From the NCBI GenBank assembly GCA_947632455.1, contig CANRPK010000003.1, positions 2,476-66,475 of the forward strand: a stretch of DNA of 64,000 bases. Direction: 5' to 3'. Origin of the DNA: an uncultured Bacilli bacterium. GTDB taxonomy: Bacteria > Bacillota_I > Bacilli_A > RF39 > UBA660. Below the pieces are notes generated by a model. It had not been told where the DNA came from and did not search any database. It saw nothing but the letters and a program-made list of their open reading frames with translations. Within the stretch, counting starts at the first letter, position 1; every line of letters begins with the position of its first letter. The position numbers were made by a program, and so were the translations under genes. Positions 9,789 to 12,611 of the stretch are shown here, piece by piece.

Positions 9789-12611
9789 ATGAATACATTA
9801 GAAATAGAAAAAAAATGGCAAAATATTTGGCAAGAAAATCACTATTTTGAAGCCAAAAACAATAGTGATAAACCAAAATATTATATCCTAGTAGAATTTC
9901 CTTATCCATCAGGATCTGGACTTCATGTTGGTCATGTAAGAAGTTATTCTGCACTAGATGCTATGGCTCGTATGAAAAGAATGCAAGGTTATAATGTGTT
10001 ATTTCCTATGGGTTGGGATGCTTTTGGAGCTCCAGCCGAACAATACGCCATCAAAAATCATATTTACCCAGCTGATGCAGTTAAAGAAAATATCAAAACT
10101 TTTAAAGGTCAAATTCAATCTTTAGGAATGTCTTTTGATTGGTCTAGAGAGTTTTCAACTACTGATCCAGAATATTATAAATGGACCCAATGGCAATTCT
10201 TACAATTTGTCAAAAAAGGCATGGCCTATAAAGCTGCTAAAGAAATAAATTGGTGTCCAAATTGTAAAACAGGGTTATCCAATGAAGATGCTGCCGGAGG
10301 AGTATGTGAAAGATGTGGAACTCCCGTAACTAAAAAATTAAAAAATCAATGGCTTTTAAAAATGAGTTCATATGCTGATAGATTATTAGATGGTCTAAAA
10401 GATACTGAATTTGAAGAAAGAATTAAAGTTGCGCAAATAAATTGGATAGGAAAAAGTATAGGTGCAGAAGTAAATTTCCAAGTAAAAGATACCGATTATT
10501 TATTAAAAGTTTTTACTACTCGTTGTGATACTTTATTTGGTGTAACCTTTATGGTTATTTCTCCAGAACATGAATTATTAACAAAATATGCCTCTAAAAT
10601 TAAAAATATTGAAGAAGTAAAAGAATATCAAGAACAAGCTAAAAATAAAAATGAAATTGAAAGAACCGATGTAACTAAAGAAAAAACTGGTGTTAGATTA
10701 GAAGGCCTAATGGCTATTAACCCTGTTAATAATACCGAAATTCCTATATATATTAGTGATTATGTTTTATCATCTTATGGAACTGGTGCTATTATGGCTG
10801 TTCCTGCTCATGATGAAAGAGATTATGATTTTGCTAAAAAATATAATATTCCTATAATTCAAGTTTTAGAAGAAACTACTGGTACTCCTAAAGAAGAAGA
10901 AACCAAAAAGAATTCTATAGTCGCGATTGTTTATGATCGAAAAAAAGATCAATACTTAACAATTAATTGGAATGAATTAGGTGGTCGTCTCTTTATTGGT
11001 GGTACTATTAAAGAAGGGGAAACTCCTCTTGAATGTGCTCTAAGAGAAATAAAAGAAGAAACAGGATATAAAAATTTAACTTTAAAATATACTCTACCTA
11101 TGATAAATCACCATTATTATGCTTATAATAAAGATAAATATTTTAATATCAATTCGACTGGCTTATATTTTGAACTAAATAATTATGATCAAGATTCTCA
11201 AGCCTTAGATAATGATGAAAAATTCACTGTTGAATGGATAGATAAATCTACCATATTAAATGAAGTAAAAGATGAATTACATGCTAAAACTTTTGCTTAT
11301 GCCTTAACGCCTGGCGCTATGGTCGGAGATGGAATACATATTAATTCTGAATTTCTTAATGGGTTAAATAAAGAAGATGCTATAAATAAAATGCTTGAAT
11401 TTTTAAGTTCTAACAATTTAGGTAAACAAGCGACAAATTATCGTTTACAAGATTGGATTTTCTCTCGTCAAAGATTCTGGGGTGAACCAATTCCAATGAT
11501 TTATTGCGATACTTGTGGTTGGGTTCCTGTTCCTGAAGAAGATCTTCCTGTATTACTTCCAACTGTAGCTAATTATGAACCTACTGATACTGGAGAATCT
11601 CCTCTTGCAAATATTACCGATTGGGTAAATACTACTTGTCCAAAATGTGGTAAACCTGCTCAAAGAGAAACTGATACTATGCCAAACTGGGCTGGTTCAA
11701 GTTGGTATTGGTTAAGATATATGGATGCCCATAATGATCAAGAATTTGTTGGTCGTGATGCCTTAAATTATTGGGGTATGGTAGATTATTATAATGGTGG
11801 TATGGAACATGCAACAAGACATTTATTATATGCAAGATTTTGGCATCAATTCTTATACGATCAAGGTTTAGTTCCAACCAAAGAACCATTTAAAAAACGT
11901 GTCGCGCATGGTATGATTTTAGGAGCTAATGGCGAAAAAATGAGTAAAAGTAAAGGAAATGTCATTAATCCTGATGATATGGTTAAACTTTATGGCGCTG
12001 ATGCTCTTCGTTGCTATGAATTATTTATTGGTGACTATGAAAAAGATGCTGCTTGGTCTGATAATGGTCTAAAAGGCTGTAGAAGATTTTTAGATCGTGT
12101 TGAAAGATTAAAAGAAAGAGTAATAGAAGGGGAAAATTATAGTTCATCTCTAGAAAATATTATTCATAAAACTATTAAAAAAGTTACTAATGATTTAGCC
12201 ACTATGAAATATAATACGGCAGTATCAAGTTTAATGATTTTAACTAATGCTTATGAAGAACAAGAAAATATAACTAAAAAAGATTATCAAACTTTATTAA
12301 TTCTTTTAAATCCTATTGCTCCTCATATAACTGAAGAACTAAATGAACAAATAGAATATACTACTAAAATTGTTGAAACTCCATGGCCAAGTTATGATGA
12401 AGCAAAAACTATCGACGATGAAGTAACTATTGGTATCCAAGTAAATGGCAAACTTCGTGGTGAAATTACGATTGAACCTGATGAAGAAGAGGAAAGTGTT
12501 AAAACTAAAGCTCTAGCCAATGAAAATGTTAAAAAACATATAGAAGGTAAAGAAATAATAAAAATAATTGTTATAAAAGGTAAAATTGTCAACATAGTCA
12601 TCAAACCTTAA
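9789..12611 (+). CDS. leuS: Leucyl-tRNA synthetase carrying an inserted Nudix domain
   Basis: Class I motifs HVGHVRSY and KMSKSKGN, and the CP1 editing domain. An ATG at 9789 with a purine-rich RBS is preferred over the GTG at 9780. There is an extra insertion of about 140 aa (see findings). Confidence 0.95.
   Translation: [940 protein letters not shown]

Follow-up and report, generated by a model that had tools for sequence, protein, structure and literature searches.

Can an essential aminoacyl-tRNA synthetase (aaRS) accommodate a second, complete enzyme inside its own proofreading domain? The question is raised by leuS, the leucyl-tRNA synthetase (LeuRS) gene of an uncultured, low-GC gut bacterium of the Bacilli, located in a 64-kb stretch of contig CANRPK010000003.1 (the whole stretch of 64,000 nucleotides is called the window below). 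Bacterial aaRSs are regarded as conservative in their architecture; catalytic domains are seldom added to such enzymes, and mostly in eukaryotes. The leuS open reading frame (ORF; positions 9780-12611, forward strand) encodes 943 amino acids (aa) counted from a GTG codon, or 940 aa if the ATG at 9789 is taken as the start. Both lengths agree with the initial annotation, and the latter is also that of an identical database protein (P0161, in NCBI and ENA); the same LeuRS is encoded in two further ENA assemblies. After the editing motifs, where about 140 extra in-frame residues had been noted, we found an insert of 150 residues, which corresponds to a net gain of ~142 residues over insert-less orthologues of 797-808 aa. 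The insert is a Nudix domain, and the gene that contains it is organized as follows (A2 is an alignment of LeuRS orthologues):

9789..12611, + strand: leuS, leucyl-tRNA synthetase, 940 aa plus stop, holding the nested Nudix domain
9924..9935, + strand: HIGH motif HVGH of the synthetic site (residues 46-49), invariant in alignment A2
10515..10532, + strand: threonine-rich CP1 editing motif TTRCDT (residues 243-248)
10806..10823, + strand: CP1 editing motif AHDERD (residues 340-345), including Asp342 and Asp345
10875..11324, + strand: Nudix domain insert (residues 363-512, 150 aa in-frame), including the linkers 363-374 and LTPGAMV (506-512)
11001..11069, + strand: Nudix box, the metal-binding catalytic motif (residues 405-427)
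11103..11150, + strand: invariant block in the X-loop region after the Nudix box (residues 439-454)
11325..12608, + strand: rest of CP1 (~25 residues), second half of the catalytic core, anticodon-binding and C-terminal domains
11937..11951, + strand: KMSKS motif (residues 717-721), conserved in alignment A2

Identity, position and conservation of the inserted domain

The Nudix box is defined as GX5EX7REUXEEXGU (PMC10148737). Residues 405-427 of the window LeuRS (G405 to Y427) fit the pattern G-x5-E-x7-R-E-U-x-E-E-x-G-U exactly, as the initial annotation had claimed for a box at about 11000-11070, and a six-frame scan of the 64-kb window returned no Nudix-box match besides the one in leuS. Against the Pfam NUDIX profile (PF00293, gathering cutoff 21.1 bits), the insert alone scored 48.0 bits (E 1.6e-12, profile positions 6-128 of 134) and the whole LeuRS protein 44.0 bits. 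This match is far above chance, so the concern that the insert might not score as Nudix in profile searches is removed. In an AlphaFold2 prediction based on the orthologue alignment, the insert adopted a compact alpha/beta/alpha Nudix fold (predicted local distance difference test, pLDDT, 89.5; predicted template-modelling score, pTM, 0.84), in which its N- and C-terminal flanks are adjacent strands, as expected for a domain that may have grown from a hairpin loop. The same compact domain was predicted in the context of the full-length protein (pLDDT 87.2, pTM 0.73), where the insert had a pLDDT of 86-95 and unchanged secondary structure. A Foldseek search of the PDB with the insert model gave 463 matches at E<=1e-3, and the matches listed were Nudix proteins throughout.

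Judging from its motifs, profile match and modelled fold, the LeuRS itself looks fully functional. The whole protein matched the NCBIfam equivalog model leuS_bact (TIGR00396) with 970.9 bits (cutoff 548.4), as two segments with the insert between them. The HIGH, KMSKS and CP1 editing motifs are all present, which bears out the earlier remark that the LeuRS motifs flanking the insert (residues 337-362, nt 10797-10874, and 513-526, nt 11325-11366) are intact. The editing residues T243, T244, R245, D247 and T248 do not vary within alignment A2, whether the insert is present or not, the GTG motif (G331, T332 and G333) is invariant in orthologues with and without the insert, and H341, D342, R344 and D345 are invariant and aligned to the AHDQRD motif of Thermus thermophilus. 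The CP1 editing domain (PF13603) scored 204 bits in the window LeuRS. In the native protein this match ends at profile position 153 of 185, and in-silico excision of residues 363-512 restored a contiguous match over positions 2-182 of 185, like that of a natural insert-less LeuRS (P0183). Therefore, the architecture is a nested one, with the Nudix domain inside CP1 and CP1 inside the catalytic core. The insertion site lies within CP1, at the place of T. thermophilus LeuRS residues 371-380, and the full-length model superimposed on LeuRS-tRNA complexes with target-normalised template-modelling (TM) scores of 0.83 (2BTE) and 0.85 (4AQ7). With the bacterial LeuRSs of T. thermophilus (1H3N, 2BTE) and Escherichia coli (4AQ7), the window enzyme shares the equivalog match, the HIGH, KMSKS and editing motifs and the fold; however, none of the solved LeuRSs has a domain at the loop 371-380 (Thermus numbering), where the window enzyme has the 150-residue Nudix domain. 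T. thermophilus LeuRS also has a leucine-specific insertion of ~45 residues (chain residues ~593-636) that the window LeuRS lacks (region 11937-12000), as expected of a short Bacillus-type enzyme.

A foreign domain in an essential gene might also point to a chimeric assembly, to a pseudogene or to a mobile element resembling an intein, and the patchy presence of the insert between close relatives, together with split-gene-like database fragments, could be read in that way. However, the ORF of ~940 aa is uninterrupted in 80 independent loci from short-read metagenome-assembled genomes (MAGs) and in the two further ENA assemblies, and the split fragments come from frameshifted long-read contigs. 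The base composition (GC) runs smoothly through the insert junctions, the replacement is clean and in-frame at the DNA level, and no repeats or scars were found at the junction. An intein was rejected, since the insert runs from T363 (TTGT) to V512 (GAMV) and is followed by G513, without an N-terminal Cys or Ser, a C-terminal His-Asn or a Cys, Ser or Thr at position +1; it is also ruled out by the Nudix fold, which spans the whole insert. We consider artefact, pseudogene and intein excluded, with a negligible residual chance, and regard it as virtually certain that the conserved nested Nudix domain is real. Split LeuRS genes (fragments of 138-260 aa in the first homologue search) were rejected as a genuine category, as they lie on long-read contigs in which every gene is frameshifted. 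Three such frameshift-ridden metagenome contigs (L001, L002 and L003) account for the misleading 'stand-alone Nudix' and 'split LeuRS' entries P0003, P0007 and P0008.

The insert is strongly conserved. Among 72 full-length orthologues, G405, E411, R419, E420, E423, E424 and G426 of the Nudix box are 100% conserved, and so are the blocks NSIVA (375-379), YLT.NW (389-394), GGRLF (398-402), DE.F.VEW (476-483) and DELH.K (495-500); the block 439-454, a candidate substrate-specificity element, is 94-100% conserved. In the same set, indels are almost absent from the insert, the linker residues T364, G365, E371 and K374 never vary, and conservation is 86-96% at P508-M511. A strict Nudix box was present in 105 of the 105 full-length gut-clade proteins recovered by the homologue search. 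The identity of the insert follows that of the scaffold nearly one to one, and its rate of nonsynonymous substitution (dN) does not exceed that of the scaffold, with a median omega of 0.225 for the insert and 0.262 for the scaffold; since synonymous divergence (dS) is ~1 and saturated in these AT-rich sequences, only this comparison of insert with scaffold is meaningful, not absolute dN/dS. In distant clades, no part of the protein evolves more slowly than the C-terminal half of CP1 together with the insert. The comparisons indicate that the insert is under purifying selection as strong as that on the synthetase core. The profile score, the confident fold prediction, the invariant catalytic residues and the dN of the insert all favour the earlier suggestion that the insertion is functional and not a pseudogene.

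To account for this architecture, we tentatively favour the following explanation as a whole. The complete Nudix domain that replaces a CP1 surface loop of the housekeeping LeuRS would act as a Mg2+-dependent pyrophosphohydrolase of the small kind resembling RppH and the hydrolases of diadenosine polyphosphates (ApnA), tethered to LeuRS. Its most likely substrates would be dinucleoside polyphosphates of the diadenosine tetraphosphate (Ap4A) type, or related by-products made from aminoacyl-adenylate and ATP, and the synthetase would carry its own clean-up activity. The aaRSs are the main source of Ap4A, and Nudix enzymes such as RppH degrade it (PMC10148737). The domain is probably catalytically active in the clade of the window, and that it has an ApnA-type substrate functionally linked to LeuRS is possible, if doubtful.

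Distribution and exchange of the insert

The survey of LeuRS orthologues revealed the same insertion in gut Bacilli and in the Candidate Phyla Radiation (CPR), with a patchy presence between sister species. In a scan of one genome per GTDB species, 150 stretches coding for close relatives of the insert were found; among uncultured gut Bacilli, as many as 150 genomes at species level carry the architecture. We fetched 80 of these 150 loci. All of them belong to MAGs of uncultured gut Bacilli, 'Tenericutes' or Mycoplasmatota, among them Candidatus (Ca.) Onthocola stercoravium and Ca. Faecenecus gallistercoris, with rabbit, ruminants, chicken, mouse and human as hosts, and all 80 have an uninterrupted LeuRS ORF of ~940 aa through the Nudix box, apart from cuts at contig ends. 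A HMMER search of 1.84 billion representative sequences gave 351 clusters at E<=1e-3; among the best 150 of the 351, 94 have LeuRS flanks, 40 are short proteins without them, and 12 LeuRSs hold two or three Nudix stretches. No relative was returned by a search of IMG/VR for a possible phage origin.

A distant member of the family (P0125) is annotated as 'leucine--tRNA ligase [Candidatus Paceibacterota bacterium]'. When it was used as a query, a NUDIX match was present in 81 of the 120 top LeuRS matches, whose named sources are Paceibacterota, Adlerbacteria (RIFCSP genomes, in UniRef), Kaiserbacteria and Moranbacteria; many LeuRS-Nudix sequences from the CPR can be found in NCBI nr and UniRef, where the NUDIX match has been precomputed. 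By these searches, the architecture is common in two reduced-genome groups, gut Bacilli and CPR/Patescibacteria. The CPR proteins (for example HVU80144.1 from Ca. Paceibacterota, and that of Ca. Adlerbacteria RIFCSPHIGHO2_02_FULL_54_18) show the same nesting at the same CP1 loop and, as in gut Bacilli, presence/absence polymorphism between close relatives. Their inserts, however, are only 25-48% identical to that of the window, many have a modified box, and some of the proteins hold several Nudix copies, or other hydrolase domains beside the Nudix or in its place.

Database labels of the family read only 'leucine--tRNA ligase', 'leucyl-tRNA synthetase' or 'class I tRNA ligase family protein'. 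The last name was given by the NCBI pipeline to many of these proteins (P0218, P0297, P0312 and P0006 among others) and 'alpha/beta fold hydrolase' to one (P0377); such oddly named proteins pass the LeuRS equivalog model here, and the insertion seems to disturb automatic naming, which makes the architecture relevant to annotation. Several contigs with a Bacilli-type LeuRS-Nudix are filed under unrelated taxa, namely Muribaculaceae (L040, L072), Roseburia sp. (L078), Clostridium sp. (L083), Clostridia (L032) and Ruminococcus sp. (P0282). These names are likely to stem from mis-binned contigs or mislabelled MAGs.

In the near clade of the window, the insert behaves as an exchangeable cassette. 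We found 15 insert-less LeuRSs of 797-808 aa, with scaffolds 83-86% identical to that of the window, that is, closer than nearly all scaffolds of insert-bearing orthologues (71-83%). At the insertion site they have a Bacillus-like 9-residue loop, GGDIAKEAY ('VIE-GGDIAKEAY-VGDG'), relative to which the insert brings the net gain of ~142 residues. The possibility that they are second copies (paralogues) was rejected, as their genes lie at the syntenic locus of other MAGs; these come from the same rabbit-gut MAG project. Three further LeuRSs (P0166, P0174 and P0181; scaffolds 82-85% identical to that of the window) carry at the same CP1 loop a different Nudix domain, referred to here as type B as opposed to the type A of the window, which is ~30% identical to the window insert, has an intact box (REVREETGY) and scores 42 bits on Pfam. 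The type B copies are 44-55% identical to each other, against 81-86% for their scaffolds. The Ruminococcus-labelled P0282 (MCM1052425.1) was listed alongside these type B carriers. Insert and scaffold histories also disagree within this near clade: the insert of P0164 is nearest to that of L012 (84%, scaffold 74%) and not to those of its scaffold neighbours (72%, scaffold 82%), and the insert of P0163 is nearest to that of L015. Outside the junction, no scaffold column separates type-A-bearing from insert-less proteins. We infer that the strongly conserved CP1 flanks served for homologous recombination by which cassettes were replaced, and the comparisons indicate that the Nudix module is dispensable and exchangeable on evolutionary timescales. 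An earlier reading of excess insert similarity in L006, L023 and L027 as horizontal transfer was withdrawn, since a sliding-window comparison showed that the whole distant clade shares it; by that comparison it is rate heterogeneity, and the opposite kind of disagreement, seen within the near clade, still holds.

Other hydrolases occupy LeuRS as well. In two CPR proteins (P0353 and P0361), the CP1 loop used by Nudix holds a HAD domain instead. Just before CP1 (equivalent to ~residues 205-238 of the window protein) is a second site, occupied by Ham1/ITPase (P0285, P0334), by alpha/beta-hydrolase (P0377, P0378) or by one or two additional copies of Nudix (P0017, P0024, P0026, P0028). In P0396, P0060 and P0110, a serine hydrolase or Nudix occupies a third site, which lies in the C-terminal half of the catalytic core. 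LeuRSs with two or three Nudix domains are P0015, P0017, P0021, P0024, P0026, P0028, P0032, P0060 and P0110; P0391 and P0373 are also among the CPR LeuRSs with other inserted hydrolase domains, which often occur together with Nudix. One protein of 1345 aa (P0052) is an IleRS-like class Ia synthetase (PF00133, 407 bits, with a DUF5915 C-terminus) with NUDIX at residues 270-396 and a histidine phosphatase at 665-809. A class Ia synthetase with a second catalytic domain is also described by the NCBIfam name NF040702, 'isoleucine--tRNA ligase, N-acetyltransferase domain-containing', an analogy by family name only, which concerns another synthetase and another chemistry (GNAT acetyltransferase). 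Type-A-like inserts, 36-48% identical, sit on the distant scaffolds P0342, P0368, P0018, P0020 and P0038, and type A is therefore old. Free-standing Nudix proteins of ~165 aa mix with the embedded ones in a tree of the Nudix domains, which at ~30% identity is poorly resolved and supports neither a single origin nor repeated capture.

These findings bring forward the main alternative explanation, in which the domain is an ordinary sanitising or salvage pyrophosphohydrolase (acting on NTP or NDP-X) with no mechanistic link to leucylation, and the permissive CP1 loop of an essential, constitutively expressed protein offers small genomes a cheap way of expressing a small hydrolase. The variety of hydrolases found at the CP1 loop and at the other LeuRS sites, the IleRS-like protein with Nudix and histidine phosphatase, the lack of scaffold residues that co-vary with the insert, and the polymorphism of presence, absence and type between sister species are all in line with such hitch-hiking. 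So are the free-standing proteins of the same subfamily and the reduced-genome lineages of the carriers (CPR and uncultured gut Bacilli/'Tenericutes'). However, Nudix recurs specifically in LeuRS (94 of the 150 best clusters), with as many as three sites and three copies, which would be unexpected if any host sufficed; the linkers are conserved, the insert is constrained like the synthetase core, and a terminal fusion would be a simpler way to mere co-expression. We see this explanation as possible and hold it with considerable doubt. In a more far-reaching reading, which we think unlikely, CP1 of small-genome LeuRSs would be a docking platform for interchangeable hydrolase cassettes (Nudix types, HAD, Ham1, alpha/beta-hydrolase) that add a third quality-control activity at the synthetase. 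The Nudix cassette would cleave a pyrophosphate species that LeuRS makes or binds, with a substrate such as Ap4A/Np4N derived from Leu-AMP or a modified tRNA-Leu end, and the quick swapping between sister species would reflect conflict or niche stress and not housekeeping.

Whether the domain needs to be catalytic at all is raised by the CPR-related match set, in which ~30 of ~80 Nudix-bearing LeuRSs have a modified box, Gx5Q...[M/A/K]E..EE, sometimes EQE (P0286, P0289, P0291, P0293, P0333 and about 25 others); these copies may be inactive or mechanistically altered. Nudix domains of the NrtR type sense ADP-ribose, and the insert could by analogy be a nucleotide-sensing, RNA-binding or structural appendage that modulates LeuRS. 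The large subgroup that keeps the domain after loss of the Gx5E and RE residues, and sometimes of one of the EE pair, would fit such a module, as would the conserved linkers. We judge it improbable, however, in view of the catalytic residues that are invariant in all 105 sequences of the window clade, the downstream Glu residues retained in most modified CPR boxes, and the insert-less orthologues, which show that LeuRS needs no such module.

Nudix family and possible substrates

A PDB sequence search, NCBIfam and Foldseek returned no family-level assignment for the insert; its nearest, weak affinities are to RppH and the ApnA hydrolases, in agreement with the initial speculation on Ap4A hydrolysis. 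The best PDB sequence match had an E value of about 1e-3. The best NCBIfam match was the YtkD/BsRppH model TIGR02705, sub-threshold at 31.4 bits (cutoff 154.4); RppH (NF001936) scored 19.7 bits, below the cutoff of 118. For type B, CPR-type and free-standing relatives the RppH models were likewise best, at 20-42 bits (cutoffs 116-259). The insert scored below the cutoffs of the models of the MutT 8-oxo-dGTP diphosphatases (TIGR00586, 23.0 vs 97.9 bits; NF008044, 20.4 vs 148 bits) and of ADP-ribose pyrophosphatase (TIGR00052, 16.6 vs 79.55 bits). The X-loop proline of ADP-ribose pyrophosphatases has no equivalent, the sole nearby proline (P437) standing 10 residues after the box, and superposition on NUDT5 and the Thermus ADPRase was poor (TM ~0.5, root-mean-square deviation 5-9 A).

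The nearest solved structure was 2AZW (TM 0.75/0.81, E 1.6e-9, 20% identity), a free-standing MutT/Nudix protein of Enterococcus faecalis from structural genomics with no function in its PDB description, from which no function can be transferred. Other structural neighbours of the insert model were the Aquifex Ap4A hydrolase 3I7U (TM 0.68/0.80), Mycobacterium smegmatis MutT1, E. coli RppH (TM about 0.65) and the Ap6A hydrolase Ndx1. For RppH, 3I7U and 1VC8 the TM scores were 0.63-0.68 by query and 0.64-0.80 by target, values that several other Nudix classes equal. With RppH/NudH and the ApnA hydrolases (4S2X/7SP3, Bacillus subtilis 4JZU, 3I7U, T. thermophilus 1VC8), the insert shares a minimal fold of ~140 residues, the canonical box and an X-loop region with aromatic and basic residues. 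However, these enzymes are free-standing and the window domain is embedded, the identity is 12-20%, the scores lie far below the family cutoffs, and the invariant signature of the insert (NSIVA and.VEW among others) matches no named family.

The X-loop, ~17 residues after the Nudix motif, sets specificity, and a Tyr in it coincides with ApnA activity (PMC5389931). In the window protein, the invariant Y443, Y444 and Y446 stand at +16, +17 and +19 from the box, in a region that is largely beta strand in the model. These tyrosines are suggestive of ApnA activity under a rule that is a correlation and not diagnostic.

The same comparisons bear on a further explanation, namely that the domain is a pyrophosphohydrolase on CP1 directed at the ends of tRNA-Leu or other RNA, which would remove a 5'-triphosphate, Np4A caps or a 3'-pyrophosphate placed by a toxin on the CCA end and so return chargeable tRNA. 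The link to tRNA 3'-pyrophosphorylation is drawn from general background. The best curated matches are models of RNA pyrophosphohydrolases (YtkD/BsRppH and RppH), E. coli RppH is a structural neighbour, the domain sits with fixed, conserved linkers inside an editing domain that handles tRNA, and its patchy, quickly swapped distribution is typical of conflict-related functions. Against this, every profile match is sub-threshold, a PADLOC scan for defence systems gave just a weak, box-level match (PDC-S07, 24 bits), and the search of viral contigs returned no relatives. We consider an RNA-end activity quite unlikely.

Several points also weigh against our favoured proposal of a LeuRS-tethered, RppH/ApnA-like hydrolase. 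The subfamily matches all lie far below their cutoffs and the best structural match (2AZW) is uncharacterised, so the substrate class is a candidate one. Ap4A is diffusible and has no obvious need for a tethered hydrolase; moreover, to our knowledge, LeuRS is not one of the strongest Ap4A producers, and aminoacyl-adenylate hydrolysis, mentioned as a possibility from the start, is not a Nudix chemistry that we know of. The HAD, Ham1/ITPase and alpha/beta-hydrolase domains of CPR LeuRSs do not fit an ApnA-specific logic, the modified boxes of ~30 of the ~80 CPR-related copies indicate that catalysis may not be the universally selected property, and sister species manage without the insert.

Full-text literature searches returned no description of a Nudix domain in LeuRS. 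The initial annotation, which knew of no Nudix module in any LeuRS, thus stands as regards the literature; as regards the proteins themselves it does not, since the architecture is widespread and its sequences are public with a NUDIX match. In the same way, the architecture is already catalogued in databases, and in the searchable literature it is not characterised. LeuRS and Nudix enzymes are each well known, and it is their combination that is uncharacterised and apparently has never been studied. The main survey of the Nudix clan never mentions tRNA or synthetases (PMC5389931). A 2026 survey of domain insertions lists the LeuRS editing domain as insertion-exclusive, with 'zero instances of host function' (PMC13114784), a statement that the LeuRS-Nudix family directly contradicts.

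The architecture thus presents an essential synthetase with a second, apparently active enzyme nested in its proofreading domain, in hundreds of species of two very different reduced-genome groups. If the Nudix domain does act on by-products such as Ap4A, a single polypeptide would for the first time unite the source of an alarmone with its sink, and the old question of signal versus damage product could be approached for Ap4A in a natural system. Orthologues that are 80-86% identical and come with the insert, without it or with an alternative one form a ready-made experimental system.

The leuS locus and its surroundings

The proposal of a tethered hydrolase concerns the housekeeping enzyme, and the region upstream of leuS contains two further features:

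9163..9338, + strand: T-box leader of the leuS operon (Rfam RF00230, full model 1-219 matched)
9374..9787, + strand: small ORF of 137 aa between the T-box and leuS, reaching the leuS start region

The T-box leader scored 88.3 bits (E about 1e-19) and escaped the default Rfam scan, its score being slightly below the gathering threshold of 93. Its specifier is CUU (Leu) at 9252-9254, read as GAA-CUU-G, and its core GGUGGUACCGCG lies at 9309-9320. The order of the locus, a GH31 glycosidase, the ~137-aa ORF, leuS and ORFs of 149/197 and 114 aa, does not differ between insert-bearing and insert-less relatives. Because of the T-box with its Leu specifier and of this synteny with insert-less relatives, the window leuS is, to judge from its locus, the regular, T-box-regulated housekeeping copy of the organism and not a spare one.

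The 137-aa ORF gave no match in a Pfam scan. Relatives (L084-L088) keep a gene of 136-137 aa before leuS whether or not they carry the Nudix insert, and the ORF appears to be co-regulated with leuS. A promoter-like site (9131-9159) precedes the T-box leader and a T-run (~9345-9358) follows it. Elsewhere in the window, Rfam (RF00005) identified a cluster of five tRNA genes at 57518-57949 (+) and a single isolated tRNA gene at 20132-20203 (-).

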